Assembly: GCA_016208745.1 (NCBI GenBank)
Contig: JACQXN010000001.1
Location: forward strand, 1-54,007
Origin: Candidatus Portnoybacteria bacterium
GTDB lineage: Bacteria; Patescibacteriota; Minisyncoccia; Portnoybacterales; GWB1-42-6
Reading direction: 5' to 3'
DNA: 54,007 nt
The stretch's first letter is position 1. Each line of letters starts with the position of its first letter. The translations under genes were made by a program, and so were the position numbers. Of this stretch, positions 3,654 to 35,569 are shown piece by piece. The notes under the pieces were generated by a model, which worked only from the letters and a program-made list of their open reading frames with translations, did not search any database and had not been told where the DNA came from.

Positions 3654-4217
3654 TTGCGCAGGGATAACGCCATGACCATGCAAAAAAGGGAAGAATTCGT
3701 TGCCATTTATAAAAAATATGCCCAGCCGGTGTATCGGTATTGTTTTTTTCGTGTCGGCTCAAAAGATCTGGCCGAAGAGTTAATGCAGGAAGCCTTTATT
3801 AAGACTTGGCAATACATTGTTGGCGGCAAAAAAATAGAGAACATCCGTTCCTTTCTCTATCAGGTTTCGCGCAACCTGATAATTGATTATTACAGACAAA
3901 GGGAGGCTAAATACAAAAAGACACTTAGCCTTGAAACAATAGGAGTTGAAACTATGAAAAACGGGTTGGCATATGAAAAAAAAGATGATTATGAAAAAAC
4001 TGATTTGTTGCGGGAAGTATTTTCTGTAATTGGGCGCCTGCCAAAAATGTACCAAGACTTATTGATTATGAAATACGTCCAAGACCTGCGGCCAAAAGAA
4101 ATCGCCAATATTTTGAAGGCGAGCAATAAGAATGTATCGGCCAAACTTAAAAGGGCGGAAAAGAAACTTAATTGGATTTTGGAAAATTCCGAGTTTGGAA
4201 AAAAGGTCGAAGCATAA
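3654..4217 (+). CDS. ECF-type RNA polymerase sigma-70 family factor
   Basis: Region 2 'YRYCFFRVGSKDLAEELMQEAFIKTWQ..LYQVSRNLIIDYYR'. Region 4 'LPKMYQDLLIMKYVQDLRPKEIANILKASNKNVSAKLKRAEKKL'. Confidence 0.85.
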   Translation: MRRDNAMTMQKREEFVAIYKKYAQPVYRYCFFRVGSKDLAEELMQEAFIKTWQYIVGGKKIENIRSFLYQVSRNLIIDYYRQREAKYKKTLSLETIGVETMKNGLAYEKKDDYEKTDLLREVFSVIGRLPKMYQDLLIMKYVQDLRPKEIANILKASNKNVSAKLKRAEKKLNWILENSEFGKKVEA

Positions 4218-4319
4218 AACTTCGTTTATTAAAAAAATTTGTTCTATAACTTTATATTGCGTAAGGCGGATGTTTAAAAAACAAATTCCGATTTCGTAAT
4301 TTAAGAGTTATTAAAAACC

Positions 4320-4781
4320 ATGAAAAAATTTAATCTTCAAAAAGGAGTAGCTAAATTGCCTATAATTCTTGCCGTTTTGGCAATCTTGATTGGGGTGGCT
4401 GCATTTATATTTTTCTTTGATAATATAAGAAATTCTCTTTCTCCAGCTTCCCAACTTGAAGGGTCAAATCAAGGAACCTCCCAGCAGCAGGCTCCCAAAG
4501 CCGATAAAACTTTCACTGTTGTCGGAGGCAATTATGAATTTTTACCCAAAGAAATTCGGGTAGAAGAAGGTGATCGCGTCAGAATTAATTTTGCCAGCGT
4601 TGAAGGAACTCATAATTGGGGTATTGACGAGTTTGATATCAGAACAAGAGATGCTCAAACTGGTCTGGCAACCGGAGTTGAATTTGTCGCTAACCAAGTC
4701 GGTGTTTTTGAATTTTATTCTAGCGTGGGAGACGACCGCCAGCGCGGCATGGAGGGGCGCGTTATCGTAGAGGCAAAATAG
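4320..4781 (+). CDS. Membrane-anchored cupredoxin-fold protein with incomplete copper ligands, immediately downstream of the ECF sigma
   Basis: N-terminal TM helix. 'FLPKEIRVEEGDRVRINFASVEGTHNWGIDEF..GVFEFYSSVGDDRQRGMEG'. His and Met are present; the canonical Cys and second His are absent. Confidence 0.7.
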   Translation: MKKFNLQKGVAKLPIILAVLAILIGVAAFIFFFDNIRNSLSPASQLEGSNQGTSQQQAPKADKTFTVVGGNYEFLPKEIRVEEGDRVRINFASVEGTHNWGIDEFDIRTRDAQTGLATGVEFVANQVGVFEFYSSVGDDRQRGMEGRVIVEAK

Positions 4782-4799
4782 TCGTGGTTTAAAATAAAA

Positions 4800-4832
4800 A
4801 AGAAGCATTGGTTTTTTGGCAATGCTTCTTTT
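4800..4832 (+). terminator. Rho-independent terminator
   Basis: 'aagaagcattg'/'caatgcttctt' hairpin followed by a T-run. Confidence 0.7.
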
Positions 4833-4856
4833 GGTTGAGTTTGATGAATAATACTA

Positions 4857-4924
4857 AATCCTCCCCAGCCCTCCCTAAAGGAGGGAGTAATTCCCCTCCT
4901 TTAGGAGGGGTTAAGGGAGATTTT
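4857..4924. repeat. Family A double-hairpin mini-repeat (copy A1, intergenic)
   Basis: 'aatcctccccagCCCTCCCtaaaGGAGGGagtaattCCCCTCCtttaGGAGGGGttaagggagatttt'. Related copies at 33857-33924, 46184-46275, and halves at 26344-26380 and 26739-26780. Confidence 0.85.
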
Positions 4925-4973
4925 CAGAAAGGACATCATTTAATGATGCTTAAAGGAGTGTTATTTACCAAAC

Positions 4974-6161
4974 TCAATAGCCTTTGAGTTTGCGTGATTG
5001 CTGATGCTGTCTGATTTTTTCAAGCGCCTTGGCTTCAATTTGGCGGATACGTTCTCTGGTTACGCCAAATTCTTTGCCGACTTCTTCTAGGGTATGGGTT
5101 ACCCCGTCATCCAATCCAAATCTCATTCTTAAAATCTTCTGTTCTCGGGGCGATAAGTCAATTAAAATTTCCTTTAGTTGCTGTTTTAATAATTTTCTGG
5201 CGGCAGATTGTGAAGGCAGAATTGTTTTTTCGTCTTCAATAAATTCGCCCAATGTTGAATCTTCTTCTCCTTCGCCAACCGGCGCCTCTAAAGAAACGGT
5301 TTCTTGCGAGATTTTCATAATTTGGCGCACCTTATCAAGCTCAATACCCATTTCAGCGGCGATTTCTTCAGGCAAGGGCTCTCTGCCCAAATCCTGCAAA
5401 AGCCGGCGCTTAACCTGCGTATATTTGGAAATTGTTTCAATCATATGCACAGGAATACGAATTGTCCGCGCCTGGTCAGCTAGAGCTCTGGTTATGGCTT
5501 GGCGAATCCACCAAGTGGCATAAGTTGAAAATTTATAACCTTTGCGCCAGTCATATTTTTCCACCGCTTTGAAAAGCCCGATGTTTCCTTCTTGAATTAA
5601 ATCAAGCAAAGTTAGATTAGGGCTGCGGCCGACATATCGCTTGGCAATGGAAACAACCAAACGCAAATTGGAGTTGATAAGCAGTTGTTTGGCTGATTCG
5701 TCTCCTTTCTCAATTCTTTTGGCCAGCTCCATTTCTTGTTCTTTGGAACCTAAAAGCGGCACCCGGCCAATTTCCTTTAAATACATCTGCACTGAATCTA
5801 GAGTTGCCTCATCAAGCCCAGCCATTAAGGGTTTTTTCAGCTCTTCTTCTGCATCAATTGGCGCATTATCTATAAGCTCTGTCGCATCAACAACTTTTAT
5901 GTTTGCGGCGTCTAATTTTTCATAAAGCTTCTCTAGCCCATGAATATCCCGTTCAACCTGCGGGATAATATGAAGAATTTCATTATCGGTAACAAATCCT
6001 TTTTGGCGGCCGCGTTCAATTAAAGCGTCAATTTCTTTATCAGAGATTGGCTCTTTTATTTTTTTAACGGGTTCGCCCGTTTCTTTTTTCGCCCGGAGCT
6101 TTTTCTTTTTTGACGGAGCAGCCCGCTTTATTTTTTTAACTTTCTTCTTCTTTTTTTTCAT
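4974..6161 (-). CDS. rpoD: RNA polymerase primary sigma factor RpoD (sigma-70)
   Basis: Regions 1.2 to 4 are conserved: '[29 protein letters not shown]', '[13 protein letters not shown]', '[15 protein letters not shown]'. Lys-rich N-terminus. Confidence 0.95.
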
Positions 6162-6162
6162 A

Positions 6163-7983
6163 TTATCCTTTTGTTAATTCAATTAGTTGCGTTGACAACT
6201 CTCTAAATTTTTCCAGATATTTTTCCATATTTTTTTTATCCTTTTGGGCTTGGGCTTCCTGGATATCAAAACTTAGTTTCACCATTTTTTCCCTGACTTT
6301 CATAATTTTTAATTCTCTAAGGCATATTTCTATTTCTTCAATAGCGGCCAGCTCATCTGTTGGGTATTGTTCAATCTTTAGCGAGAGATACTCCAGTTTT
6401 ATAACCAGCTCTGGCGTTAGTTTCTTTCTAAGGCTTTCCAAGCAAGAATTTCTTGGTTTTCCCTGAAGCGCGCAAAGCCCGTCAAAAATTTGGGCTAAAT
6501 GCTCATTAAAAAACAGCTTTTGATTGTGGTCAGAATTTTTTAAATGTTCGGGAAAATTTAAGTAAAGGGAGAGCAATTTTTCTTCAAGCTCCTGCGCTCT
6601 TGTTCTTTCCTCTATTTTTTGCGGCGTCTGCACAGTTGTCGCCAGGTTTGAAGAAGGAAGGGAAGCTTTTCTTAACTCGGAATAAAGAATTTTTTCGTCG
6701 GTTTTTAGGCGGCGAGCCATCTCCCCTATCCAATGAGACTGCTCTATCTGGTTAGAAATTTTCTTAATAACCGGCAGAAGGATTCTGGCAATTTGTTTTT
6801 TATCTTCCGGCCGCTCAGATTTAAATTTAGCAAAAGTGCAGTCAAAATAGTAATCAATAATTGGCATGGCTTCCTCTAATGTTTTTTGCCAAGCATCGGG
6901 CTCCTCTTTTATTAAGTCTGCCGGATCTTTTTTGTCTATTTTTATTATTTTTGCGTTGAGATCATTTTCTAGCGCCAAATCAATGCTTCGTTTGGTGGCG
7001 TTTTCTCCGGCCAGATCCATATCAAAAGCAAAAATCAGATTATCAGTATAACGCTTGATAATCTTAAGATGCTCGGCTGTTAGCGCTGTGCCCGAGCTTG
7101 CCACAACATTTTTTACGCCTGCCTGATGCGACATTATCACGTCTAGGTTTCCTTCAACAAGAATGCAGGAGTTTTTTTGCCGCAGATCCATTTTGGCAAA
7201 ATTCAAACCATAGAGCAGGCGGCTTTTATCATATAAAATCGTCTGAGGCGTATTGATATACTTGCCGGCATTTACATCTTCTTTGCCAAAAATCCGGCCG
7301 GCAAAACCGACAATTTGTCCCTGAATATCAAAAATCGGGAACATTATGCGGGAGCGAAAGCGATCATAATAATTTGGAATTTGTGATTTGGAATTTTTTT
7401 GGAAATTGGAAATTGGAAATTGGAAATTTTCATCCCGCTTTACAGCTAGCCCCGTATTAAAAATATCTTCATCGCTATAACCCCGTTCTCCCAGAAAAGC
7501 GCTGAGCGAATGCCATTCATCTGGTGCCCAGCCAAGCCGCCAATCCTTGATTGTTTGCGAGCTAAGCCCTCGTTCGCTTATCAGATATTCATACGCATTT
7601 TGGCCGGATTTTGTTGCTTCTAGCTGTTTTTGAAAAAATTTAGTTGCTAGTTCGCAAATTTCATAAAGCCGTTTCCTTTGGGTCTGGACAGCAGGGTCTT
7701 GTTTTTTCAGCACCACTCCTGCCCGCCGCGCTAAAATTCTTAAAGCGTCGCCAAATTCAACGCCTTCAATCTGTTTGACGAAGGCAAAAATGTCGCCGCC
7801 TGCGCCACAGCCAAAACAATGCCAAATTTGCCGTTCGGGCGAAACCATAAAAGAAGGGGTTTTTTCGGAATGAAAAGGACACGGGGCTCTATAATTTCGC
7901 CCCGCTTTTTGCAGCTTAACATAGGAGCCGACGACCTCAATAACGTCCAGCCGATTTTTTATTTCATCAACAGGCGAAAGCAT
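6163..7983 (-). CDS. dnaG: DNA primase DnaG
   Basis: CHC2 zinc finger '[30 protein letters not shown]'. TOPRIM '[16 protein letters not shown]'. dnaG-rpoD are adjacent (macromolecular synthesis operon). Confidence 0.95.
7401..7428. repeat. Perfect tandem heptanucleotide repeat (ggaaatt)x4 inside dnaG
   Basis: ggaaatt repeated four times. Encodes '..[12 protein letters not shown]..'. The unit is not a multiple of 3. Confidence 0.9.
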
Positions 7984-8374
7984 ATAGATTTAGCTACGGA
8001 ATACGGATAAGTACGGATATACAGATAAAATCAAAAATTCACTTGGGGGCAAGCAATGGTTTATGCGAATTTATCCGTGTCATCCGGGTGCAAATCCGGG
8101 CAATCCGGGTCGCCGTGAAATCACCTCTTAACAGGCATTTTAAGACATTCTTGAATCTTAACGTCTTTTATTTCAGGCCAGCATTCTTTCCCCCATTGCT
8201 CCATATCATAATGGTTCCAAACCCACCAAGCGCCATAAATTATCGCCGCCCAAATCACGAGTTTTAAAAAAATACGCATAAAGATTGTGTTTTTTTAAAT
8301 TATAGCCCTTTTTAGTGTTGGCGTCTACCCTTAAAAACTAAGGCTTTATCTATTATAGATTGCCAGTATATTGG

Positions 8375-9529
8375 CTAATCGCCAAAAATTTGTTGGTTAT
8401 CCGTTGATAGGCGCAGCGCTTCTTTGAGTTTGGGCGAGTCTACAAAATCATTCAAGACGCTATCTTGCTCAGCCAGAGAGATAAAAATACGCGCGTAGGT
8501 TTTATCCGAGCCATGCTGGGAATCGATTAATTCCTCATCTTTGCCCCCAAATTTCTTCATATCAGATAAATCATAAAAATTAAATCCGTAGTGATTAAAT
8601 AAATTTTCCAGTGTGCGGCTTAAGTTATCGGCAACAGCTTTATCCAAACTATCTATTGCCTGAATTTTTTGATACGCAACCAAGGCGTAAGGCGGCATAT
8701 AGCCAATAACAATTATATGGTATTTCTTACAGGCAGTCAGGAAGTCCTCTACGTTTTGCAAAGATTTTGTATCTAGCTCGCTTCCATATTCAAGGTTATT
8801 CTGACCGGGTTTAATCCTTGCGAGTATCTCGTCTATTGAACTTTTTAATATTGTCTGCTTATCGGGATTATTAATAAAATCATTATAATAAAAACTGCCA
8901 TCATTGCGGAATCCGTTTCCATTGGCGATTGCGTTTAAGCCAACTTGCGACATATCTGTTTTGTTTTGGAATACATCAGAGAGGCGAAACTTTTTTTGAA
9001 AATAGTCAAGGTATATCTTTCTCCAGCCATAGATAAAAAATTGTTCCCACGCCGGATCATTGGCCGTTGAGGACCGATGAAGAACAAAAACCTGATTAAT
9101 ATCTGTTGATTCGGGTTTAAAGCCGGGTTTAAACCATCGTTGGTCAGTCCCAAGAATAATAAATTTTGGCCGTTTTTCTGGCGGCAGGCTTTCCAAAAAA
9201 TTTACGAGGTCGCCGGATTCTTTGGCGCCGCCGCCGGCATTATAAAATGTTATTTCGGGGCGAAAAAACTCAGAACGGATATTCATTACCCTTGATGTGC
9301 CAAGAGCTAAAACTTGCGCGCCGCGCAGTTTTGCAGATAAAATTTTAAAATTTTTGTCAACATCGCTATAGGCGCGGCCAAATAAAACCGGACTAGAAGA
9401 TAATTGTTGTTCGGCCACCTTTTTTATGGACATCGCCTCTCCGCTGGACGTAAAAACTAAAAAAGGCAAAAAATATAAAAATGCCAGAGGCAAGCTGAAT
9501 AAAAAGATATTGCGTAAAAACTTTATCAT
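8375..9529 (-). CDS. DltD/AlgJ-like SGNH-fold envelope acyltransferase partner, signal-anchored
   Basis: N-terminal hydrophobic anchor, then 'SSPVLFGRAYSDVD..VLALGTSRVMN..FIILGTDQRWF'. Located directly downstream of the MBOAT gene. Start was placed at the internal Met at 9529; the track ORF start 9622 overlaps the MBOAT gene by 91 nt. Confidence 0.7.
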   Translation of the reverse strand: MIKFLRNIFLFSLPLAFLYFLPFLVFTSSGEAMSIKKVAEQQLSSSPVLFGRAYSDVDKNFKILSAKLRGAQVLALGTSRVMNIRSEFFRPEITFYNAGGGAKESGDLVNFLESLPPEKRPKFIILGTDQRWFKPGFKPESTDINQVFVLHRSSTANDPAWEQFFIYGWRKIYLDYFQKKFRLSDVFQNKTDMSQVGLNAIANGNGFRNDGSFYYNDFINNPDKQTILKSSIDEILARIKPGQNNLEYGSELDTKSLQNVEDFLTACKKYHIIVIGYMPPYALVAYQKIQAIDSLDKAVADNLSRTLENLFNHYGFNFYDLSDMKKFGGKDEELIDSQHGSDKTYARIFISLAEQDSVLNDFVDSPKLKEALRLSTDNQQIFGD

Positions 9530-9531
9530 AT

Positions 9532-11013
9532 CTAGAATTGAAAATAAATGAATGATTTTGCGCCAAGATAGCCAAGCATTAAAATCCATAGAATAACCAA
9601 ATAATAAGCGCCGAGACGCCAAGAAAGCGGCCAGCGAATAATCAAGTTTCTGATGGAGGTTGATTTGGCGGCAGAAAATTCCACGATTTCCATAAACAGG
9701 ATAGCCGCCAGTATTAAAGATAAAAATGCTTTACTAGAACCAATCGTCGCGATTGTCAGGACTTGATAACGCAAAAATTCAAAATCAAAAATTTGCGCTA
9801 AACCCTTAGGCAGGTTGCTAATGATATGCCAGGCATCATTCAATGTTTGGGCGCGGAAAAATACCCAGCTTATACAAACCAGACCAAATGTCGCTGCTAT
9901 CTGCCAGATACGATATATTTTTGGCCATTGTCGGGCGCCAAGCTTTTGCGCCAATTTTTCCCGCCATGTTTTTGTTGCTTGTCCAAAAATCAAATAAAAG
10001 CCATGGGTTGCCCCAAGCATAACAAATGTCCAGTTGGCGCCATGCCATAAACCAATCAAGACAAACGTGATAAACAAAGCCCAATAAAGCCTGACGCGGG
10101 TCTTTTTTTTGGCTGCCAGCGCCAAAGGATAATACATATAATCGCGCAGCCAGCTGGATAATGATATATGCCATCGCCGCCAGAATTCTGTAATTGATCT
10201 GGATGCGTAAGGGCGATCAAAATTTTTCACTAATTCAACTCCCAGCACCCTGGCTGAACCAATCGCGATATCTGAATAGCCGGAAAAATCACAATATAAT
10301 TGATAGGCGAAAAAAACAACGGCCAATAAAATCGCGGCAGAATTTGTCTGATAGAGACCGCCGTAAATTTTATCAACCATCAGCGCTAATTGATCAGCGA
10401 TAACCAATTTTTTAAAAAATCCCCAGAGCATCAATGTCAAGCCATCCATTACCCGTTCGTAATCAAAGCTTTTCTTTTGGTGAAGTTGAGGTAATAAATG
10501 TTGCGGCCGTTCAATCGGACCGGCGACTAACTGCGGGAAAAACATTACGTAGAGCGCATAAATTCCAAGATGTTTTTCTGCCGGATGCTTGCCCCGATAT
10601 ACTTCAATAACGTAACTTAAACTCTGAAAGATATGGAAAGATAAGCCAATGGGCAATATTAATTTTAGGCTTTGGACGGAATAATTCCAGTTGATAACGT
10701 CTGCGAGATAAGAAATATTTTGATTAAAGAAGTTAAAATATTTAAAAACGAGCAAAGTGCCCAAGTTGCCAATAATGCTTAGAATCAGCAAAAGTTTTCG
10801 TTTTTTTCCTTGCTGTTTTTCAATCATCCGCCCCAGAGAATAATCAAGAAGAATCAGAAAAACCAAAACTAAAATATACCAGGGCATAAACGACATATAA
10901 AAATAAGCGCTTGCCAATAACAAAAACACCCACTGATAGCGGCGCGGGATAAGAAAAAACGCAAATATTACTATCGGGAAAAAAATTAAAAAGGCTAGCG
11001 AATTAAAAAGCAT
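9532..11013 (-). CDS. MBOAT-family membrane O-acyltransferase (DltB/AlgI-like)
   Basis: Multi-TM protein. MBOAT His region 'WRRWHISLSSWLRDYMYYPL'. Confidence 0.9.
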   Translation of the reverse strand: MLFNSLAFLIFFPIVIFAFFLIPRRYQWVFLLLASAYFYMSFMPWYILVLVFLILLDYSLGRMIEKQQGKKRKLLLILSIIGNLGTLLVFKYFNFFNQNISYLADVINWNYSVQSLKLILPIGLSFHIFQSLSYVIEVYRGKHPAEKHLGIYALYVMFFPQLVAGPIERPQHLLPQLHQKKSFDYERVMDGLTLMLWGFFKKLVIADQLALMVDKIYGGLYQTNSAAILLAVVFFAYQLYCDFSGYSDIAIGSARVLGVELVKNFDRPYASRSITEFWRRWHISLSSWLRDYMYYPLALAAKKKTRVRLYWALFITFVLIGLWHGANWTFVMLGATHGFYLIFGQATKTWREKLAQKLGARQWPKIYRIWQIAATFGLVCISWVFFRAQTLNDAWHIISNLPKGLAQIFDFEFLRYQVLTIATIGSSKAFLSLILAAILFMEIVEFSAAKSTSIRNLIIRWPLSWRLGAYYLVILWILMLGYLGAKSFIYFQF

Positions 11014-11021
11014 ATCATTCC

Positions 11022-11783
11022 CTATTTCTTAAGAAAGAATTTATCAACTAAAATGTTTAGATTATCAGATTTGCCTTCTGTCTTTGAGCAAAGCAAAGAA
11101 ATAGTTTTTGCTACATCTTGCGGTTTTGTCAGCTGTTGATTTGGAAATTTTTCTTTTAGCAATTCAATAAATCGATCCGGTATGTCGGCATTGATGCCGC
11201 CGGCAATAAAGCCCGGGGCAATAGCATAAACCCTGACATTATATTGCTTCAACTCATTGGCAAATTCTTTCAGCAATCCCTTAAGTGCGGATTTAGCGGA
11301 AATATAACCGCCAAAATTTCCCGATACGAGATTTTCTTCAATCGCCGACGTTGTTAAGCCAATTAATGTTCCTTCCCGGCGCTGCTTTAATAACAAGGTA
11401 ATATTTTTAAAAAAACTAAAACCGCCGAACAGACCAACGTTAAACTGGGCCTTAAATGTTTCCAAATCAAGATCGCTGACTTTTTTTCTGATAATCGGGG
11501 AATTGGCGCAATGAATGCCTATATAAATCGGGCCGATATTTTTTTCTATTTTTTGCAATACCTTGGCAACCTCATCTGGATTTTTTATGTCGCATTGATA
11601 GACAAAAACATCGGGCGAAGAGAAGGATTCGCAAATTTTTTTTACTTCGCTTTTTGGGGTTTCATGATAAAGCAAGGCAACCGCAAAGCCATCTTTGGAT
11701 AATTGTTGGCCAATAGCTTTTCCTAATAACCCAAATCCCCCGCTGATAACAGCCAATCTTTTATTGTTATTTATTTTATTCAT
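11022..11783 (-). CDS. Short-chain dehydrogenase/reductase (SDR)
   Basis: Gly-rich NAD(P)-binding 'VISGGFGLLGKAIG'. Catalytic 'YISAKSALK' (YxxxK). Confidence 0.85.
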   Translation of the reverse strand: MNKINNNKRLAVISGGFGLLGKAIGQQLSKDGFAVALLYHETPKSEVKKICESFSSPDVFVYQCDIKNPDEVAKVLQKIEKNIGPIYIGIHCANSPIIRKKVSDLDLETFKAQFNVGLFGGFSFFKNITLLLKQRREGTLIGLTTSAIEENLVSGNFGGYISAKSALKGLLKEFANELKQYNVRVYAIAPGFIAGGINADIPDRFIELLKEKFPNQQLTKPQDVAKTISLLCSKTEGKSDNLNILVDKFFLKK

Positions 11784-11788
11784 AAACT

Positions 11789-12232
11789 TTATTTTAGGAC
11801 ACGGATAAGCGCCTGACCATCAACCAATAGATCTTCAGATGATTTATCAATGATTTTTGTAGATAGGGCAATAGTATGAAAAGCGTCATTTTTATGCAAA
11901 ATAATTCCGCTGACCAGAATTTGCTGTCCAGAAAGCATCGGCCGATGAAAATTTAGGCTCTGCGATAGATATAAGCTGTATTTGCCGGGCAATTCCATGC
12001 CAATAAGACGAGAAAAAAGCATACCGGCAATCATGCCGTGAGCAACCGGATATTTAAACTTGGTCTCTGATGCGTATTCGGGATCTGTATGTATAGGATT
12101 GGCATCTCCTGACAATTTAACAAAGTCCGCAATAACTTCGCCGTTAATTAAAAAATCAAACTCTGCTTTTTGTCCAATAAGCAATTGGTCGTAGGTAAAT
12201 TGTTTTAATTGATCAGGCATTTGTATCGCCAC
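11789..12232 (-). CDS. MaoC-like (R)-hydratase/dehydratase hot-dog protein
   Basis: 'SGDANPIHTDPEYASETKFKYPVAHGMIAGMLFSRLIG'. A GTG start is implied at 12232; an alternative ATG lies at 12220. Confidence 0.8.
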   Translation of the reverse strand: MAIQMPDQLKQFTYDQLLIGQKAEFDFLINGEVIADFVKLSGDANPIHTDPEYASETKFKYPVAHGMIAGMLFSRLIGMELPGKYSLYLSQSLNFHRPMLSGQQILVSGIILHKNDAFHTIALSTKIIDKSSEDLLVDGQALIRVLK

Positions 12233-12449
12233 CCTTTGATACTATTAAACTAATGACATCGGAAAAATTTTTTACCGACATAACCTCGTCATAATTAAAC
12301 TCGATATTAAATGCCTTTTCTACTTCCGAAACTAAAATAATGGCATTCAATGAATCCCAGCTGGAGGTATTTTCCGGCGACAATTCCGGACCGATTTTTG
12401 CTTCGTCAACTCCCAAGACGGCTGAAAATATTTTTGTTAAGCGGCTCAT
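12213..12449 (-). CDS. Acyl/peptidyl carrier protein (DltC/ACP-like)
   Basis: 78 aa. Phosphopantetheine attachment motif 'WDSLNAIILVSEVEKAF'. Confidence 0.85.
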   Translation of the reverse strand: MSRLTKIFSAVLGVDEAKIGPELSPENTSSWDSLNAIILVSEVEKAFNIEFNYDEVMSVKNFSDVISLIVSKGGDTNA

Positions 12450-14185
12450 AAGGATTTTTCTTTAATTGCGACCGATTGACTGAAATGTTGCGCGTTGCTA
12501 ATTAAATCCGGCAGGCCGATCGAATAATGAATAATCTCGTTGTCTTGATTTGTTTGGTTAAATCCAAGCGACGATAAAAAATCCTTAGCCGGTTTATTTT
12601 TCTGAGTTGGCGTAAAAGCGGCTGTTAATTGCCCAAATCCGCATCGGTCCAGCTCCCTTGCTAAATAATGCATAAATTTTTGCTCTACCCCGCGACCCAT
12701 GACCCGACAGCTCATTAAAAAAGTATCTAGATCGATAACGTCTCTATTTATTGGTTTTAAGACCGCTATAATTGTTTTGCCGTAATCGCCAAATTTATCT
12801 GATATGTTTCCTGAAAAAATCAGAGCGCCATCATCAATCAACTGTTCTATTTCTTTTTCAGAATAACGCTTAGTCGTTAAATTAAATTGGTTTGTTTTTA
12901 TGGTTAGTTGCGAAAGGCGGCCAATTGCCGCTCTGTTATTTTTTTCAATAATAATCTCGATATTTAAGGCCGCGATATAATCTTTGAGGTTTTTGGTTGA
13001 ATATAATATATTCTTTCGCTGGCGCTCATCCGCATACATTTTTGCTTTTTGCCAATCTTCTTCTGTCAGGCTAAATTGATTAAAAACATTGAGCGAATAT
13101 AAGGTCGGAACATAATGTTCTGGCGCTGGCGGCAATTCTGGCACAGCAACATCAGGCAACATAGAACGAACCAATCCTCGATTAACAGGATCGTCGTCAA
13201 TAAAAACAAGGCTGTCTAGTCCGATGTTAATTTCTTGTGCAATTTCGATCATATTTTTAGCTTTGTCTTCCCAATTCAGCCTAATTGCCGCAAAATGATT
13301 TTCTTTTAGAATCATATGAGGATTTTGAGCAAAAACTTCTGAAACATCTTCCGGATTATTCTTGCTGTTAATAGCCAGAATTATGCCCCGGTTATATAAA
13401 TCCAAAAGAGCATGTTGAAAATTTTGATAAGCCAAACCCGGATAATCAGGTCCAAGAGCAATGCCAAGCGGGCCTGTTTCGCCAACCACGCCGCCCCATA
13501 GGGTGTTATCCAAATCAAGAACAATGCATTTTTTTGTTTGGCCTAAAAGAGCCCGAATATAACTAGACCACTCCTGCGTTAAGGCCAAAAGAAAGTCATT
13601 ATTAAAAGGGATATCAAAGGCATAGAGCCCGCGAAAGTCTCTGATATGCCGTTCTCCTTGTTGTTGCGCCAAAGCATTAATGTCAAAGATATAAAGATTT
13701 TTTATTTCTTGGCTCAAATCCTTAAGTTTCTGATTGGCTTGTTGGATAAGAATAAATAGAGGGCTTAATTCAAAAAGATTGCCATAAGCGCCTAAATAAG
13801 GAATTAGAAAGCTTGTCATTATAACTGGCGCTGTTGTTTGCAGGCAATACTCTTTTACATCGGTTAATAATTCCAGAAAATGCTGCTCGTCAGAGGTAAA
13901 AGAGGATTTTAGATATGGATTAGCGTCAAAAAGAATAAAAGTGACGTCTGCCGGATTCTGATACAAAGCGCTTTGCCGGTTTTTTAAATGAAGATAATAT
14001 TGTTTATACGGAACAGCAAAAATTTCCGGATAAATTCCCTGGCTTAATAAAAAACCTTTGAGGATTTTTTGCAAAATCTCATCAGTAAAATTGGTAATTA
14101 AGTTAATTTTAATCTTTTTTTTGCCCCCGTCGTTTGGGGCGCCTTTGTTTGCGTTAGCTAATTTTAGATAGTCAAGCAGTTCCAT
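12446..14185 (-). CDS. FkbH-like HAD-superfamily (IIIC) domain protein with C-terminal GNAT-like domain (predicted glyceryl-ACP loader)
   Basis: HAD motif I 'CIVLDLDNTLWGGVVGE'. Architecture is typical of FkbH/OzmB-type enzymes. Confidence 0.75.
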   Translation of the reverse strand: MELLDYLKLANANKGAPNDGGKKKIKINLITNFTDEILQKILKGFLLSQGIYPEIFAVPYKQYYLHLKNRQSALYQNPADVTFILFDANPYLKSSFTSDEQHFLELLTDVKEYCLQTTAPVIMTSFLIPYLGAYGNLFELSPLFILIQQANQKLKDLSQEIKNLYIFDINALAQQQGERHIRDFRGLYAFDIPFNNDFLLALTQEWSSYIRALLGQTKKCIVLDLDNTLWGGVVGETGPLGIALGPDYPGLAYQNFQHALLDLYNRGIILAINSKNNPEDVSEVFAQNPHMILKENHFAAIRLNWEDKAKNMIEIAQEINIGLDSLVFIDDDPVNRGLVRSMLPDVAVPELPPAPEHYVPTLYSLNVFNQFSLTEEDWQKAKMYADERQRKNILYSTKNLKDYIAALNIEIIIEKNNRAAIGRLSQLTIKTNQFNLTTKRYSEKEIEQLIDDGALIFSGNISDKFGDYGKTIIAVLKPINRDVIDLDTFLMSCRVMGRGVEQKFMHYLARELDRCGFGQLTAAFTPTQKNKPAKDFLSSLGFNQTNQDNEIIHYSIGLPDLISNAQHFSQSVAIKEKSL

Positions 14186-14188
14186 AAT

Positions 14189-14536
14189 TTAAAAAGCGAC
14201 GGCAAAACCAGCGACATAATCTGTAGAATGCGATAAGCTGACTTTTAGTTGATAATTGTGCGCTTGTTTTGATAATAATCTAACCAGAGGCTTTTTACCT
14301 GCTTTAATGATTTCAAAATCGTGATACGTCAGGGTTTCAGGGCAAGCTTTAATGACCGCTTCTTTGACAGCAAGGCGCGACGCTAAAAAAATAGCTGGGT
14401 TATTGTGTGATTTAAATTGCTTGTATTCGGCTGGGGTTAAAATTAATTCTGCAGCTCTGGCCAGAAATTTAATTTTTTTAAAGCGTTCCAATTCGATAAT
14501 GTCAACACCCACACCGAATAATTTTGGCCGGTGCAT
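14189..14536 (-). CDS. acpS: Holo-ACP synthase (4'-phosphopantetheinyl transferase AcpS)
   Basis: 'FGVGVDIIELERFKK..ASRLAVKEAVIKA'. First gene of the operon. Confidence 0.85.
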   Translation of the reverse strand: MHRPKLFGVGVDIIELERFKKIKFLARAAELILTPAEYKQFKSHNNPAIFLASRLAVKEAVIKACPETLTYHDFEIIKAGKKPLVRLLSKQAHNYQLKVSLSHSTDYVAGFAVAF

Positions 14537-14568
14537 AAATTGCGTTTTTAAGCCTTATTTTTGAATTG

Positions 14569-14937
14569 CTATTCCACAATTATTTCCCCTGTCATATCAG
14601 GATGAATATCGCAACGATAAGAATAGCTACCTTTTTCAATAAAAGTCTTTTCAAATATGGCGCCGCAGATAATTTCTCCGCTATCCCAGCCTTCTCCGGT
14701 TACCGTATGGTTAACCGCATCTTCGTTTTGCCAGATGATTTTTGTGTTGCGAGGCACTTTTAAAACAGCCGGGTCAAATTTGAAATTCATTATTATGATT
14801 TTTTGTTCGCTGCCCTCTGTTAAGGGGACTTGATTAACTTCGTTTTTGTTGAATTTTTGAATAGCAAAAGCGGCTCCGACGGTTAGCGCTACTAAGACGA
14901 TTATAAGAATTAGTCTATTTTTCATATCAAATATCAT
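14569..14937 (-). CDS. Type-1 blue copper protein (plastocyanin/amicyanin-like cupredoxin), exported
   Basis: Signal/anchor, then complete ligand set: H in 'AVNHTVT' and 'YRCDIHPDMTGEI' (Cys-x2-His-x2-Met). Confidence 0.85.
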   Translation of the reverse strand: MIFDMKNRLILIIVLVALTVGAAFAIQKFNKNEVNQVPLTEGSEQKIIIMNFKFDPAVLKVPRNTKIIWQNEDAVNHTVTGEGWDSGEIICGAIFEKTFIEKGSYSYRCDIHPDMTGEIIVE

Positions 14938-14946
14938 ATGATTGCT

Positions 14947-15432
14947 TTATGCGATTTGCGCAAAAAGCACGACATAGTTTTTGCCGTATTTCTTGGCGCA
15001 TTTGGGGCAGGTGGTATAAGAAAAATAAATTTTCTTTAGTTCTTTGCCTTTGGATTTTATATATTCTTCCATTTCTTTGGCCCATTTGCCGACATTCTGA
15101 TACGGCCCCTCAAAAACTTTTGTTAAGAAAGTTCCGGAAATCGTTGCCATTTTGGCACCGGGCACTTCTTTCAAAACATCAATATAAATATCCGATCCCC
15201 AGAGAGATTTTTCGTCGGTCAGCATTAATTGATACGGCGCTTTTGCGCCAGCGTCCTCTATAAGTTCAATATTCTTAATGATTTTGGCGCCCATATTAAG
15301 CGGGATATGGAAAAAACTTGTTACATGGTCTTTGACAAAAATTTTATTATCCCAAGTTATCTCTTTTTCCTGCCACGGTTCGGGATTAAAAGGGTCGCAG
15401 CAGCCTGTTGGTTTGATTGTTTGATGATCCAT
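14947..15432 (-). CDS. Hypothetical protein with C-terminal CPKC motif
   Basis: 161-aa ORF; no family recognised. Confidence 0.6.
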   Translation of the reverse strand: MDHQTIKPTGCCDPFNPEPWQEKEITWDNKIFVKDHVTSFFHIPLNMGAKIIKNIELIEDAGAKAPYQLMLTDEKSLWGSDIYIDVLKEVPGAKMATISGTFLTKVFEGPYQNVGKWAKEMEEYIKSKGKELKKIYFSYTTCPKCAKKYGKNYVVLFAQIA

Positions 15433-15451
15433 ATATTAATAAAATATTCGT

Positions 15452-15583
15452 ATTCTCCCTCCCCTCCTCAGATGAGGAGGGCTTCGGCCGTGAGCTCAGC
15501 CGAACGGGAATAAAAGGGGAGGTGTTGATTCTGAATTCAACACCCCACCTGAATCCTCCCCTCATCTGAGGGGAGGAGGAATT
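15452..15583. repeat. Family B MITE-like element (copy B1, intergenic) with ~22-bp terminal inverted repeats
   Basis: TIRs 'attctccctcccctcctcagatgagg' ... 'cctcatctgaggggaggaggaatt'. Internal hairpins 'ttcggccgtgagctcagccgaa' and 'gtgttgattctgaattcaacac'. Second copy at 38214-38310. Confidence 0.85.
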
Positions 15584-15590
15584 GGAATAA

Positions 15591-16427
15591 TTATTTATTG
15601 ACTTTATTTATATACTCCCAAAAAATATTCATTAAATATCTTGTATTTTCTCCCACCTTCCCATTCCCTATTTTATTATCGTCAATTTTAACCACCGGCA
15701 CAATACCTCTTGAAGTTGAGGAAATGAAAGCTTCGCTGGCGCCAAGCGCTTCCTTTAATTTAAGCGGCCGTTCGATCACTTTAAATTTATTTTTTGCCAA
15801 TTTTAAAATTAATCCCCTCCTTGTGCCGTGCAATATGTTTTCTTTCGCCGTAATTAACGAGTTGTTTTTGAATATAAAAAAGTTGCAGGTCGCGCCTTCC
15901 AGAACAAATCCTTTTGAGGTATAGAGAATTTCAAAAGCCTTCTTTTTTTCTTTAAGCCCCATTAGGCTCATCATGGTAGCGTAATTATTTGATTTTGCTT
16001 CGGGTTTTTCTCTTTGATGCTCGCAGGTTATCATTTTTACGCCTTTTTCATAGATATGGGGCGGGCATTCAGGCAATTCTTTCGTTGTAATAAAAAATGT
16101 CGGGCAATCATAATCGCAAGTTATGCCATTTTGGCTTTCCCCGCCGGTTAGAACGATTCTTATGGCAGCGTCTTCTATTTTGTTTTTAGCCAAAAGGCTT
16201 AAAATTATATTCCCTACTTCTTTTTTTGAAGCAGGGACTTTAAGATTTAAGCTTTTGGCTGATTTTTCAAAGCGGGCAAGATGTTCGTTTAATAAAAATG
16301 GTTTGCCATTATAAGTTCTTAAATAATCAAAAACTCCATATCCGCGCAAAAGGCCGATATCATTGATGCTAACTTTGGCTTTTTCTTCGGGAATGACTTT
16401 TCCGTTTAGATAGCAATATTTTGGCAT
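15591..16427 (-). CDS. Class IV PLP-dependent aminotransferase (branched-chain/D-amino-acid aminotransferase family)
   Basis: 'LNGKVIPEEKAKVSINDIGLLRGYGVFD', 'IRIVLTGGE'. Confidence 0.85.
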   Translation of the reverse strand: MPKYCYLNGKVIPEEKAKVSINDIGLLRGYGVFDYLRTYNGKPFLLNEHLARFEKSAKSLNLKVPASKKEVGNIILSLLAKNKIEDAAIRIVLTGGESQNGITCDYDCPTFFITTKELPECPPHIYEKGVKMITCEHQREKPEAKSNNYATMMSLMGLKEKKKAFEILYTSKGFVLEGATCNFFIFKNNSLITAKENILHGTRRGLILKLAKNKFKVIERPLKLKEALGASEAFISSTSRGIVPVVKIDDNKIGNGKVGENTRYLMNIFWEYINKVNK

Positions 16428-16488
16428 AACAATAGCATAGCACGACTTTTTGAATTGTGAAATCTAATCTCCCGAGTTTGGTCAATAA

Positions 16489-16726
16489 TGTCATTCCGGC
16501 CTTGCCTGCCCGCCGGTAGGCAGGGAATCCAGCCCCCTCTCTTAAGATAAGAGAGGGGTAGGGTGAGTTATGAATTAAAATTATAACTCCTCCCACCCTC
16601 CTCTTATATTAAGAGGAGGAGTAAATATGGATTTCCGCTGGAGTTTACCCCGTACTACGATACGGGGCGGGAGGTGGATTTATTCGTATGTGCGAAATTC
16701 GGATGAATTTTTCGCTATTCGGATAC
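16489..16726. repeat. Composite intergenic block of stacked palindromic mini-repeats
   Basis: Partial family C 'tgtcattccggcc..cagggaatcc'. Hairpins 'ccctctcttaagataagagaggg' and 'ctcctcttatattaagaggag'. 'ccccgtactacgatacggggcggg' module. Family D copy 16678-16726 'atttattcgtatgtgcgaaattcggatgaatttttcgctattcggatac'. Confidence 0.8.
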
Positions 16727-16774
16727 AAAAAAGCCCTCGGGTATTCCGGGGGCTAGATGTTATATGAAGTGATT

Positions 16775-16978
16775 TTACGTTTGAGCTTTATCATCTTCAT
16801 CTTTCAGGTAGCGCGGCGCGAAAAGTTCAAGGGTTTTTTCAAAAGTCGGATCAACCCTTTTAAGATAGGCGTGTGTTTCGGCCAATGGGCTGATACCTTT
16901 TTTCCTGATTTCTTCGTGATTTTGATAAAGCTCTATCGTTCGCATGGAAATATACAATTCAGCTTCTTTGCTCGGCAT
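16775..16978 (-). CDS. Small hypothetical protein (67 aa), 4th gene of a small-gene operon
   Basis: AGGAGA RBS 7 nt upstream. Confidence 0.55.
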   Translation of the reverse strand: MPSKEAELYISMRTIELYQNHEEIRKKGISPLAETHAYLKRVDPTFEKTLELFAPRYLKDEDDKAQT

Positions 16979-16996
16979 AATTTTCTCTCCTTTTTT

Positions 16997-17161
16997 CTAC
17001 TTGCATATTGCTTTACCAAGAAGTTCCGCATAGAAGTCAGCCATTGGGTCGTCACTTTTAATAATCGGCGGCTCAGGTTTATGACCTAAAATAAGTTCAT
17101 GGAATGAAACTTTCGTCTCTACCAATTTTCCATCTTTATCTCTCTTAATCATGGTCGCCAT
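16997..17161 (-). CDS. Small hypothetical protein (54 aa), not in ORF track
   Basis: ORF 'MATMIKRDKDGKLVETKVSFHELILGHKPEPPIIKSDDPMADFYAELLGKAICK' with AAGGAGA RBS 4 nt upstream. Fills the gap between flanking small genes. Confidence 0.5.
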   Translation of the reverse strand: MATMIKRDKDGKLVETKVSFHELILGHKPEPPIIKSDDPMADFYAELLGKAICK

Positions 17162-17172
17162 TTCTTCTCCTT

Positions 17173-17397
17173 TTATCCAAAAGGTCTATCCAAAGCATGG
17201 GCGGCGGCAACAAACCTAGCTCTTTCTTCCTCTTTTATCTTCGCTTGAAATTCTTCTATCTCTTCGGCAGTGTGGCCCAATGTGCCCGGAACTATTTTTA
17301 TGATCCCTTCTTTTATTTTTCTTTGCCGCTCAGCCACTTCTTTTTTAAAATCCGCGATTACTTGTTCTTTAGTCTTGATCGGAAATTCATCAGGCAT
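17173..17397 (-). CDS. Small hypothetical acidic helical protein (74 aa)
   Basis: GGGAGGGG RBS upstream. Overlaps the upstream gene by 8 nt. Confidence 0.6.
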   Translation of the reverse strand: MPDEFPIKTKEQVIADFKKEVAERQRKIKEGIIKIVPGTLGHTAEEIEEFQAKIKEEERARFVAAAHALDRPFG

Positions 17398-17584
17398 CTT
17401 TTATCCCCTCCCTTTGTTTCTCTCGCCAATGCCGTCGGCCAATTTCTTCAATGTGCTCTTGGGCCGCAATCAGCTCTTTGGGATGCAAATGAGCCAATTG
17501 CATGACAGCTAATTGGGCGCTGATTAAATTATTATCATAATCATCATCTGGTAAAATTGGCCTGCCGCTTTTAGTGAATTCCAT
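17390..17584 (-). CDS. Small hypothetical protein (64 aa), first gene of the small-gene operon
   Basis: GGGAGGT RBS upstream. A palindromic operator-like site lies at 17617-17667. Confidence 0.6.
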   Translation of the reverse strand: MEFTKSGRPILPDDDYDNNLISAQLAVMQLAHLHPKELIAAQEHIEEIGRRHWREKQREGIKDA

Positions 17585-19894: not shown

Positions 19895-20296
19895 TCAGTT
19901 TCGTTCAATCTTATTAGCGATGCGGATCATTTGTTTTTCTAGCGATTCGGTCCTTCTCTCTATGCGTCTCAATTTCCTCTCTGGCTCCCCTAATTTCCGT
20001 TCCAATTTTCTCTGTTCGGATCTTATGGCGTTTAAAATTTTGCGTGGCTCGCGTTGGATTTCACGCTCAATTTTATTAATTTCCTGTTGCTTCTTTCTCT
20101 CAATGCGCTCTGGGGTTCTCTCGATCTGTCTGATAAAACGATTTCTATCATTGACTCTGCTCTCAATTTTATCTAAGCTATCCTCTAGCGAATCTAAAAA
20201 TCCTAAATCACTAACTGCGTCAGCTGATTTAATATTAAGTCCGTAAATTAAGAATAAAATACCAAGAATTATTAAGGTTAGTGAAAGATTTTTCAT
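19895..20296 (-). CDS. Secreted coiled-coil protein, Glu/Arg-rich (ERK repeats)
   Basis: Signal peptide, then 'IERKKQQEINKIEREIQREPRKI..RKLERKLGEPERKLRRIERR'. Confidence 0.65.
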   Translation of the reverse strand: MKNLSLTLIILGILFLIYGLNIKSADAVSDLGFLDSLEDSLDKIESRVNDRNRFIRQIERTPERIERKKQQEINKIEREIQREPRKILNAIRSEQRKLERKLGEPERKLRRIERRTESLEKQMIRIANKIERN

Positions 20297-20335
20297 AATA
20301 CCCCCCCCTTAATAAATAAGACGAATTGGCAATTG

Positions 20336-20375
20336 AAAAACCACGTTAACAACGGAATGTTTAGCGTGGTTTTTG
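20336..20375. terminator. Bidirectional terminator hairpin
   Basis: 'aaaaaccacg..cgtggttttt', flanked by an A-run and a T-run. Lies 3' of the radical-SAM operon. Confidence 0.7.
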
Positions 20376-20380
20376 AGGTA

Positions 20381-20440
20381 GAAATTGGCGGAAGGGGCGG
20401 GTATCCTTCGCTCGTCTAGGCGAGCTTCGGAATACCAATT
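20381..20440. repeat. attL-like direct repeat: degenerate partial copy of tRNA-Ser 3' end (left island boundary)
   Basis: 20382-20402 'aaattggcggaaggggcggg' versus 24383-24403 'aaattggcggaaggagcggg' (20/21 identical, same orientation). Downstream 'gctcgtctaggcgagc' and 'ggaatacc' resemble a decayed anticodon arm and variable arm. Confidence 0.7.
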
Positions 20441-20464
20441 CTTTCTTTGTTTTTTGCGCGCCGC

Positions 20465-24729: not shown

Positions 24730-24778
24730 CCCCGCCCGAGGTGTGATCGGCCTCCCCGCCCGAGGCGGGTGCGCCTTG

Positions 24779-24798
24779 GGCGCATATGCGACCCTTCC
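24779..24798. repeat. Partial duplicate of tRNA-Ser 5' end
   Basis: 'ggcgcatatgcgacccttcct' versus the tRNA 5' region 24455-24476 'ggcctctatgcgacccttcct'. Flanks the GIY-YIG gene on the side opposite the intact tRNA. Confidence 0.6.
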
Positions 24799-24802
24799 TA
24801 AT

Positions 24803-24826
24803 TTGTCGCTGCCGGACAGCGACAGA
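24803..24826. terminator. Conserved palindromic hairpin (REP/terminator-like), one of two identical copies
   Basis: 'ttgtcgctgccggacagcgacag'. Near-identical 'ttgtcgctgtccgacagcgacag' at 37186-37208. Both copies sit at convergent gene ends. Confidence 0.65.
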
Positions 24827-24834
24827 GTGTTTAA

Positions 24835-26343: not shown

Positions 26344-26380
26344 AGCTCCCTCCTTTTTAAAGGAGGGGTGGGGTGGATTT
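26344..26380. repeat. Family A half-element (hairpin-2 half) flanking the DUF559 gene
   Basis: 'ctccctcctttttaaaggaggggtggggtggattt' matches the second half of A1. Confidence 0.7.
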
Positions 26381-26385: not shown

Positions 26386-26736
26386 TTAAATCTCATTGCG
26401 TATTTTCTCAACAACGTTATCTATATTTCTCAGGACGTCCAGATTGGTGAATCGTAATATCCGTAATCCTAAATTTTTCAAATACAAGTCTCTTTTTCTG
26501 TCCGCAACTATATTTTTTGTTTCGTAATGTTGTCCGCCGTCAATTTCAATAACTAATTTTGCTCTATCACAATAGAAATCAACAATATAATTATCTATTG
26601 GCTTTTGTCTGTTGAATAAACAATCCTTGATTTGCCTTTTTCTTATCTTTGACCAAAGTAACTTTTCGGCGTCAGTCAACCTCGACCTCAAGTCTCTACT
26701 TTTCGATTTTAGATAAGACACGTATCTTAAAGGCAT
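26386..26736 (-). CDS. DUF559 endonuclease-domain protein (Vsr/restriction-endonuclease-like fold)
   Basis: 'EKLLWSKIRKRQ..FNRQKPIDNYIVDFYCDRAKLVIEIDGGQHYE..DRKRDLYLKNLGLRILRF'. Confidence 0.75.
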   Translation of the reverse strand: MPLRYVSYLKSKSRDLRSRLTDAEKLLWSKIRKRQIKDCLFNRQKPIDNYIVDFYCDRAKLVIEIDGGQHYETKNIVADRKRDLYLKNLGLRILRFTNLDVLRNIDNVVEKIRNEI

Positions 26737-26738
26737 AA

Positions 26739-30292: not shown

Positions 30293-30310
30293 CGGTAGAG
30301 TCTTTTAATT

Positions 30311-33924: not shown

Positions 33925-33937
33925 ACATTCATTAATT

Positions 33938-35569
<1,632 letters not shown>

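Follow-up and report, generated by a model that had tools for sequence, protein, structure and literature searches.

What are the GC-rich, hairpin-forming mini-repeats that recur along a 54,007-nucleotide contig of Candidatus Portnoybacteria, and which process could spread or maintain them? The stretch analysed here (hereafter the window) is a whole contig, JACQXN010000001.1, of a metagenome-assembled genome (MAG) from the candidate phyla radiation (CPR). An earlier note on its sequence had placed in it four repeat families (A–D) and two small hairpin modules. All of them are present where they had been placed, far beyond chance, as dispersed hairpin-forming mini-repeats of several families and of unusual density. 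That note missed the copies lying in-frame inside genes, the DUF559 gene between the family A 'halves' at 26344 and 26739, and the cosmopolitan spread of the elements. The best explanation, which we regard as reasonably probable, is that the repeats are selfish hairpin elements that combine features of the REPIN–RAYT system and of the Rickettsia palindromic elements (RPE), with a DUF559 gene as their partner.

The hairpin unit and the DUF559 cassette

The unit of family A is about 30 nt long and reads CCCCTCC-TTTA-GGAGGGG-TTAG-GGGAGATTT, that is, a pyrimidine arm, a loop, a purine arm, 3–5 nt and a tail. The 68-bp 'double hairpin' described earlier consists of two such units in inverted orientation with their tails outward; each of the 'halves' at 26344 and 26739 is one unit with its tail inward, and the two bracket the open reading frame (ORF) 26386–26736 within a few bases. 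This ORF, on the minus strand, encodes a DUF559 protein (PF04480) of 116 aa, a Vsr-like PD-(D/E)XK endonuclease with an intact VDF…E.DGGQH motif. The resulting cassette of ~420 bp has DUF559 as its only gene and two inverted family A units as its ends. The unit at 26348–26380 (plus strand; CCCTCC-loop-GGAGGG followed by the tail GTGGGGTGGATTT) abuts the stop codon, and the inverted unit at 26737–26771 (minus strand) abuts the start codon. On the minus strand the latter reads …GGGAGG-CTAGGAGGGATTT-ATG, and its tail thus gives DUF559 a Shine–Dalgarno (SD)-like GGAGG.

The protein matches the Pfam model PF04480 with an E-value of 2e-35 (121.4 bits against a cut-off of 20.6) and scores 81 bits against the NCBIfam model 'DUF559 domain-containing protein', under its equivalog cut-off of 218; the nearest solved structure is 3hrl. 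Residues D53 (of VDF), E64, D66 and H70 are conserved in at least 95% of 71 sequences. As the motif TDAEKLLW…VDFYC…E.DGGQH is kept, these proteins appear, by sequence, to be functional. Among PD-(D/E)XK nucleases the family falls in the Vsr branch, which also includes a group I intron homing endonuclease (PMC3424549).

A scan of metagenomes for relatives of this protein found 479, and the best 80, with 48–69% identity, were taken for comparison. Almost all of them share a single layout: on the 5' side a pyrimidine-arm hairpin is followed by 3–5 nt, GGGGAGATTT, 0–20 nt and the start codon, and on the 3' side the stop codon runs into AAATCTCCCC and then into the inverted hairpin. The SD-like GGAG contributed by the unit tail lies 7–10 nt ahead of the DUF559 ATG. 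A unit directly precedes the start codon in 57 of 58 aligned upstream regions, and the inverted repeat formed by the 70-nt flanks of DUF559 beats all 50 shuffles at 51 of 70 loci. By a strict criterion, units were found upstream of DUF559 in 53 of 78 cases and downstream in 47 of 75, against 11 of 125 and 13 of 140 (~9%) at neighbouring ORFs, a 7-fold enrichment. Each of the 17 upstream stem variants is perfectly paired, so the stem has been kept by compensatory change.

The upstream and downstream ends of a cassette are consistently different variants, and their arms are no more alike within one cassette than across loci (5 of 30, with 4.9 expected on permutation). A 31-mer upstream of DUF559 in seven metagenomic contigs (L115, L117, L120, L122 and L126–L128) is identical to positions 46244–46274 of the window, which lie inside uvrC; solo copies and cassette ends are therefore one family. 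Small genes on two further contigs, at 4464–5229 of L007 (212 aa) and at 3561–3945 of L165 (123 aa), are likewise bracketed by inverted units with tails inward. Their products, guessed from sequence alone, are NYN-like and DUF488-like, and gene types besides DUF559 may use the same bracket.

Copies inside protein-coding genes

Some of the copies in the window are parts of housekeeping genes. The uvrA gene (37215–40154, minus strand), which encodes a full UvrA of 979 aa by Pfam, hosts a family B element at 38214–38310 (minus strand) that encodes residues 615–647 in the linker between the ABC halves. Compared with the solved Bacillus structure 2r6f, residues 616–652 stand for six linker residues. 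A short form of uvrC (45820–47079, plus strand; 419 aa, with a GIY-YIG and an RNase H-like domain) hosts two elements, both on the plus strand: a family A double hairpin at 46178–46275, with a nested ccccgta..tacgggg hairpin, encodes residues 120–152 (peptide …INSPQPSPVSSTGRALKGGSDSPPLGGVRGDF…), and a family C element at 46421–46489 encodes residues 201–224 (peptide YHSRESGNLEDKKSGFRVKPGMTK). The Pfam domains of UvrA and UvrC are intact around the repeats. UvrC is short throughout this lineage (about 350–450 aa), and Pfam sees only the GIY-YIG and RNase H-like domains in it.

In an alignment with 28 UvrC homologues (51–68% identity), the two insert sites are hypervariable and contain anything from no insert up to at least four types of repeat-encoded peptide. 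About a dozen homologues, of 347–377 aa, are insert-free. The peptides include a family A type (…PPQPSLKGG..SPPLGGVRGDF), a family C type (CHSR..SGNP..GSRIKCGMT), the types RHSERSEES…LRMT and PQSPFYKGG…LLKRGAGGDF, and further ones. An AlphaFold model built on the same alignment has a mean predicted local distance difference test score (pLDDT) of 76.5, and values below 50 occur only at residues 129–146 and 197–217, inside the inserts, apart from the last three residues. In the model, the inserts are thus the only internal segments of the protein predicted to be disordered. A search with the 34-aa uvrC insert against 1.84 billion representative sequences gave one match, the query being too short and of low complexity. 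Some homologues, e.g., P0004, P0014 and P0026, have a third variable site within the GIY-YIG region.

Orthologous sites in relatives differ both in the presence of an element and in the family that occupies them. Across three syntenic loci, the uvrA linker contains family B (the window), a family C-type insert, CYSRESGNP…GSRVKPGMT (contig L195), or neither (contig L196). Near residue 245 of UvrA, a further site is occupied in L195 by another insert of family C type and is empty in L196. In uvrC, the position of the window's family A element is occupied by a full element of that family in L195, and the gene of L196 (356 aa) is without insert. At the site of the second L195 insert, UvrA of the window has an extra segment (residues 243–268) that is not repeat-like and may be a decayed element.

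The window's dnaG (6163–7983, minus strand) contains four tandem copies of GGAAATT with a matching arm, in-frame at 7368–7430, just ahead of the conserved motif YDRFR; by Pfam, the DNAG_N domain of this protein falls into two stretches.

Scanning of ORFs around DNA matches in other genomes revealed units in-frame in a MurC-like ligase, Dus, two Wzy_C ligases, RecG, MiaA and a Mur ligase, with Pfam confirmation on both sides of the insert. Several of these host proteins also have family C-type or other repeat peptides.

Distribution across genomes and soundness of the assembly

Family A and C-type elements are not confined to the window. Matches to the unit pattern, which has 21 fixed bases and for which we roughly estimate ~5 chance matches in 596 Gb, occur at more than 112 loci of many genomes, and the same units recur in hundreds of contigs, the phyla and studies of which are unrelated. 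They were found in Patescibacteria, Saccharibacteria, many Dehalococcoidia, Holophagales UBA2201, Elusimicrobiota, delta-proteobacterial MAGs, Desantisbacteria and others. Mb-scale contigs with units belong to Dehalococcoidia, Chloroflexia, Planctomycetes and Armatimonadetes; matches on contigs of 0.4–5 Mb cannot be mis-binned CPR DNA. Many MAGs have several unit loci each. The likeness extends beyond the fixed pattern to the TTA linker, a TT/AA extension of the stem and the full double-hairpin form. Some lone matches, among them a conserved locus of Bordetella, are probably unrelated. Among 253 units, 160 are solo, and there are 24 tails-in pairs, 20 tails-out pairs and 3 direct tandem arrangements. 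Loci of Patescibacteria, Chloroflexia and Dehalococcoidia contain elements of family C type with the ends TGTCATTC…GAATGACA, and on contig L055 a family A unit is nested within a family C element. Only one unit match was found in a viral collection, which makes phages unlikely carriers.

An independent Logan assembly of run SRR12113404 (contig L001) is 100% identical to the window over positions 33855–46250 (12.4 kb), including the uvrA insert. Both ends of the Logan contig fall within family A copies, as expected of multi-copy repeats in short-read assembly, and two contigs of another Portnoybacteria MAG (L102 and L104) also begin inside family A copies.

Positions of the cassette

Cassettes on different contigs adjoin different genes, namely tatD/def, fpg, nusA, cca (CCA enzyme) and a gene for a HIT protein, and the cassette of the window sits between a hypothetical gene and one for an M48 peptidase. 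In one DUF559 clade, that of contigs L177, L184, L187 and L191, proteins that are 90–94% identical are found in unrelated flanks. A block of ~560 bp with extra outer inverted ends is shared there, and an AT-rich flanking duplication of 8 bp, similar to a target-site duplication, is perfect in L187 (TTGATATA) and near-perfect in its clade mates. The ~560-bp element is also present on L192 and L164, with outer ends GGCTCATCGTGGAAGTGAGTGGGTAA … TTACCCACTCGATTACACGAAGATCG. In the window's own clade, similarity ends at the hairpins and no duplication was seen.

Origin and spread of the repeats

A process that recognises the hairpin together with its tail could spread or maintain the units. DUF559 would be the best candidate for this activity because it is the only gene consistently attached to the units and is a predicted nuclease; it would then be to the units what RAYT is to REPINs. 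Copying might proceed via nick-and-repair in a homing-like manner, via a transposase acting in trans, or via recombination between units. Families B and C are built alike, each as a pair of inverted hairpins that end in short tails, and modules nest in each other's loops. A copy landing in a permissive linker with an open frame would be kept and translated as a disordered loop, in an RPE-like manner, and a coding sequence would tolerate insertions solely at permissive linkers and in the single open frame of each strand. Landing in-frame would have taken place in uvrA, uvrC and probably dnaG. We infer that the elements have been mobile in the Portnoybacteria lineage and that those in genes are translated. 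The weakest step, which we put forward tentatively, is that DUF559 makes nicks or cuts at the units and that they are spread or maintained in this way.

A number of observations weigh against this explanation. The ends of the window's cassette (loop TTTTTAAA, tail GTGGGGTGGATTT) are only ~75% like the solo copies of the window, which fit the cassette ends of other genomes better than the window's own. DUF559 lies nearby in only 2–3 of 112 listed loci that had been selected by the unit, and most units are distant from it; DUF559 is not known to act on these hairpins, and its link with them could be passive. Four related contigs keep the cassette at tatD–def, which argues for long vertical inheritance rather than frequent jumping. 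No target-site duplications were seen on inspecting the flanks of the window copies or of full elements elsewhere, and no recent polymorphism in the presence of a copy could be traced between near-identical strains, uvrC relatives reaching 61–66% identity at most. Stop-free frames number 0–2 of six in the A, B and C copies, the same as in random windows, which ruled out the idea that pyrimidine/purine arms make the elements unusually stop-free. The ~560-bp clade, from its sequence, suggests a transposon or miniature inverted-repeat transposable element (MITE) carrying the cassette and moved by a conventional transposase.

This last observation is the main support for a competing account that we hold to be possible but clearly less likely than the one above, in which a conventional transposase (of DDE, IS110 or IS200/IS605/RAYT type), encoded elsewhere in the genome, moves the repeats in trans as ordinary MITEs and DUF559 is a passenger or chance neighbour. 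The elements are indeed short, have inverted ends and code for no transposase, and the unlikeness of the window's cassette ends to its solo copies and the distance of most units from DUF559 would be natural under it. However, no transposase was found among the window ORFs scanned against Pfam, no target-site duplication was seen around the window copies or around full elements elsewhere, and a passenger role leaves unexplained both the tight fusion of tail, start and stop across genes diverged to 48–69% identity and the 7-fold enrichment. It is improbable, in turn, that the repeats are functional host sequences, such as terminators, mRNA stabilisers, or translational or protein-binding sites, kept for their function and not spread. 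Copies do lie just 3' of groEL, uvrA and the gene at 24835–25710, stem pairing is kept through compensatory changes, DUF559 receives its SD-like GGAG, the cassette is stable in position in one clade, and the resemblance of the arms to SD/anti-SD sequences, a constraint common to all bacteria, could explain the likeness across phyla. The earlier note had several copies exactly 3' of genes as possible terminators. The position is correct for the three genes just named, but the three A, B and C copies within uvrA and uvrC lie elsewhere, and a terminator role fits few copies at most: a stem-plus-T-run scan of 4000–17500 omits the family A copy at 4857–4924 and reports just an inner family B hairpin. 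Within coding sequences there are three copies in the window and no fewer than seven in other genomes, orthologous sites vary in presence and family, modules are nested, and none of the repeats matches Rfam at the gathering score.

A further account takes the double hairpins for attC-like folded recombination sites of integrons. The attC inverse-core/core consensus is RYYYAAC/GTTRRRY, and the common unit form CCCTAAC…GTTAGGG agrees with it at 6 of 7 positions; imperfect palindromes of 60–100 nt beside a small promoter-less ORF would also suit an integron-like gene cassette with DUF559 as its gene. We nevertheless consider this very improbable: no integron integrase (IntI) is present among the scanned window ORFs, half sites with tails inward bracket the gene in place of whole sites in a one-directional array, the window copies read CAGCC/GTTAAGG, off the cores, and copies occur inside genes. 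An assembly artefact or a duplication local to the contig, the two pitfalls named in the earlier note, has nothing in its favour beyond the metagenomic source of the sequence. Both are excluded, to a practically negligible residue of doubt, by the Logan identity over 33855–46250, by units in hundreds of contigs of other genomes and by the preserved frames of the host genes.

Comparison with known repeat systems

Selfish hairpin elements with a partner gene have their closest counterpart in the repetitive extragenic palindromic (REP) sequences of Proteobacteria. In this REP/REPIN–RAYT system (REPtron), as it is reported, the partner RAYT is a Y1 HUH transposase, the unit has a GT[AG]G head and the repeats are extragenic. 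Both systems have a short imperfect-palindromic unit with a conserved non-palindromic end, occurring solo and in inverted pairs that fold into one long hairpin, and in both a single small gene lies between two inverted units and keeps its chromosomal position within a clade. In contrast to RAYT, the gene flanked here is a DUF559 PD-(D/E)XK nuclease; there is no GT[AG]G head, the conserved end being (G)GGGAGATTT, and copies also occur inside genes, with one unit type over many phyla.

The elements behave like the Rickettsia palindromic elements (Ogata et al. 2000, summarised in PMC10969869), which are also dispersed palindromic repeats of a small genome that lie in-frame in unrelated housekeeping genes, are tolerated as an extra peptide and have no known transposase. 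This likeness is one of behaviour. The host here is a CPR bacterium, the elements are modular and 68–137 bp long as compared with about 100–150 bp, several unrelated families can occupy one site, and there is a candidate partner gene. With MITEs and mobile insertion cassettes (reviewed in PMC10969869) the elements share a length below ~300 bp, inverted ends and the absence of a transposase ORF, and some forms of these carry a passenger gene. They differ in that the ends are themselves stable hairpins and that no clear target-site duplication is seen at the window copies. A cognate insertion sequence with unit ends was not found among the scanned window ORFs; the sole gene with such ends is DUF559.

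Further parallels are more distant. The GC clusters of yeast and the double-hairpin elements of Allomyces, both of fungal mitochondria, are reportedly GC-rich double hairpins in a more AT-rich genome, situated in intergenic as well as coding or variable regions and linked in places with mobile endonuclease genes, features that the repeats described here share; unlike those, the latter are bacterial, have no sequence relation to them and are associated with another endonuclease family. The dRS3/NIME repeats of Neisseria, said to follow the formula ATTCCC-N8-GGGAAT, are likewise dispersed intergenic mosaic repeats. One family C hairpin, ATTCCCGTGAAAGCGGGAAT (46424–46443), fits this formula exactly, as a match to the formula only; spacers of the other family C hairpins are longer or different. 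Family C further differs from dRS3 in its TGTCATTCC…GGAATGACA ends, its two hairpins, its intragenic copies and its occurrence in CPR, Chloroflexi and other phyla. Overall, the system resembles REPIN–RAYT in its layout and RPE in its in-frame behaviour, with another enzyme, another unit and a CPR host.

Repeat inventory and gene setting of the window

The window contains 3 matches to the family A unit pattern (0.00 expected from shuffles), 26 clusters of GC-rich perfect hairpins (5.5 in shuffles) and 19 pyrimidine-arm hairpins (5.8 in shuffles). Self-BLAST aligned pairs of family A copies at 80% identity over 81 nt (E-value 2e-11) and at 94% over 51 nt (1.6e-10), and each copy of families A, B and C folds better than its own shuffles (z from −2.4 to −6.3). 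The genome had been called AT-rich, which is only moderately so, the mean GC content of the window being ~40%. At Rfam gathering scores the window yielded two tRNAs only and no repeat matches; below threshold, the repeats matched eukaryotic miRNA hairpins and whalefall-1 (20.9 bits, threshold 37).

Outside genes, family A double hairpins are found at 4857–4924, where two units with tails outward lie between a converging cupredoxin-like gene (plus strand) and rpoD (minus strand), and at 33856–33925, 12 nt 3' of groEL (33938–35566, minus strand). A pair of variant units without a gene (16534–16621) has its tails, GAGTT/AACTC, inward and the spacer ATGAATTAAAATTAT. Beside it, the ccccgta..tacgggg hairpin with the tail GGGAGGTGGATTT (16646–16680, plus strand) is a unit with a different stem; this hairpin, at 16648, recurs at 46200, nested in the family A copy of uvrC. 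The second family B element (15450–15586) has inverted ends of ~22–40 nt and extra central hairpins, and fills the gap between two minus-strand genes. Family C is further represented by an intergenic element at 33400–33512, with the ends TGTCATTCC…GGAATGACA and a pair of ATTCC-type hairpins, of which the first contains an extra nested hairpin, and by a partial copy at 16489–16527 (plus strand) with the left end and first hairpin. The second module, a ttgtcgctg..cagcgacag hairpin, occurs on the minus strand directly 3' of the gene at 24835–25710, also on the minus strand (24799–24833), and again overlapping the stop codon of uvrA (37183–37217).

Family D is a hairpin repeat of 46–49 nt. It had been described in both orientations, but all four copies are on the plus strand: upstream of ORF 16757–17089 (16678–16726), between a histidine-kinase start (30292, minus strand) and the stop of a FIST gene (30358, minus strand) at 30308–30355, as a divergent copy filling the gap between the holin gene and secG (48960–49007), and at 49236–49283. 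The last overlaps the possible ATG starts 49246 and 49261 of the SBP_bac_5 gene, so both candidates lie inside the copy, and the caution about start codons at secG and this gene that had been advised is fair; homology of the SBP_bac_5 protein with its relatives starts ~30 codons after these ATGs. The holin–secG gap is 3 nt in the syntenic contig L196 and contains unrelated repeats in L195; the family D copy there is thus an insertion and not a conserved regulatory site. No match to family D was found among the other loci.

A fifth, AT-rich type of repeat, absent from the earlier note, comprises the GGAAATT stretch in dnaG and a palindrome of 115 nt, composed of AAATCCAAA-type words, that takes up the gap between the SBP_bac_5 gene and GPI (51020–51146). 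Further AT-rich self-complementary stretches (70–86% over 51–114 nt) are found at 2069–2118, at 16188–16260, within a class IV aminotransferase gene, and at 53664–53769.

By Pfam, the housekeeping genes of the window include rpoD, dnaG, groES/groEL, uvrA, uvrC, secG and the gene for the SBP_bac_5 protein, in addition to sugar-nucleotide enzymes and a two-component system. A LysM-domain gene (1249–1965) contains a tandem duplication of ~147 nt (1648–1794 and 1816–1959, 71% identity), and upstream of uvrA there is an L20 leader match (40224–40351, minus strand), sub-threshold at 35 bits (gathering score 59; E-value 0.003). The sole recombinase among the scanned ORFs is a large serine recombinase (22866–24482, plus strand), the 3' end of which overlaps the adjoining tRNA-Ser (24387–24474, minus strand). 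A 34-nt direct repeat of the tRNA-Ser 5' region (24447–24480 and 24771–24804) is spaced 324 bp apart, and a low-GC block (33% GC, 20001–22000) with a radical-SAM gene nearby lies in the same region, which is possibly an integrated element.

DUF559 and hairpin repeats beyond the CPR

To our knowledge, no function has been assigned to the DUF559 family, whose small proteins are very common. We found no report in open-access papers that ties DUF559 or YcjD to repeats, and no description there of palindromic elements or MITEs in CPR/Patescibacteria. Escherichia coli K-12 has a single DUF559 gene, ycjD (contig L197, NC_000913.3 1351000–1351830), which ends in pyrimidine/purine hairpin-like sequence; part of its 3' end is duplicated after the gene. 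Downstream, ~170 bp from ycjD, there is the hairpin CCCCTCGCCCCTCTGGGGAGAGGGTTAGGGTGAGGGG with its TTAGGG…GAGGGG tail; this repeat, of the form CCCTCT-GGGG-AGAGGG-TTAGGGTGAGGGG, is perhaps 'Box C'. A 64-nt query around this hairpin had matches in every complete E. coli genome searched (5,426), the median number of sites per genome being 16. As a single locus seen after the fact, ycjD is a lead, not a test.

It is conceivable, though we would not yet count it as probable, that DUF559 (YcjD-like) proteins are the cognate enzymes of cosmopolitan hairpin repeats with pyrimidine/purine arms, from CPR and Dehalococcoidia to E. coli, and that such repeats routinely remodel the linkers of essential proteins in ultra-small genomes. 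With similar reservation, the association may represent a second system of the REPIN–RAYT kind, with a PD-(D/E)XK nuclease in place of the HUH transposase. If true, this would provide a role for DUF559 and name a partner for hairpin repeats that litter metagenome assemblies and interrupt contigs. CPR genomes are streamlined and usually called stripped of mobile DNA; on the present reading they hold dense selfish repeats in uvrA, uvrC, dnaG, mur ligases, recG and miaA, and repeats within genes affect gene calling, protein-family alignments and length-based quality checks of MAGs. They would also represent a second, independent example of palindromic repeats entering coding sequence without killing the protein, hitherto known mainly from Rickettsia. 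With its one DUF559 gene beside such a repeat, E. coli would make the idea testable in a model organism.

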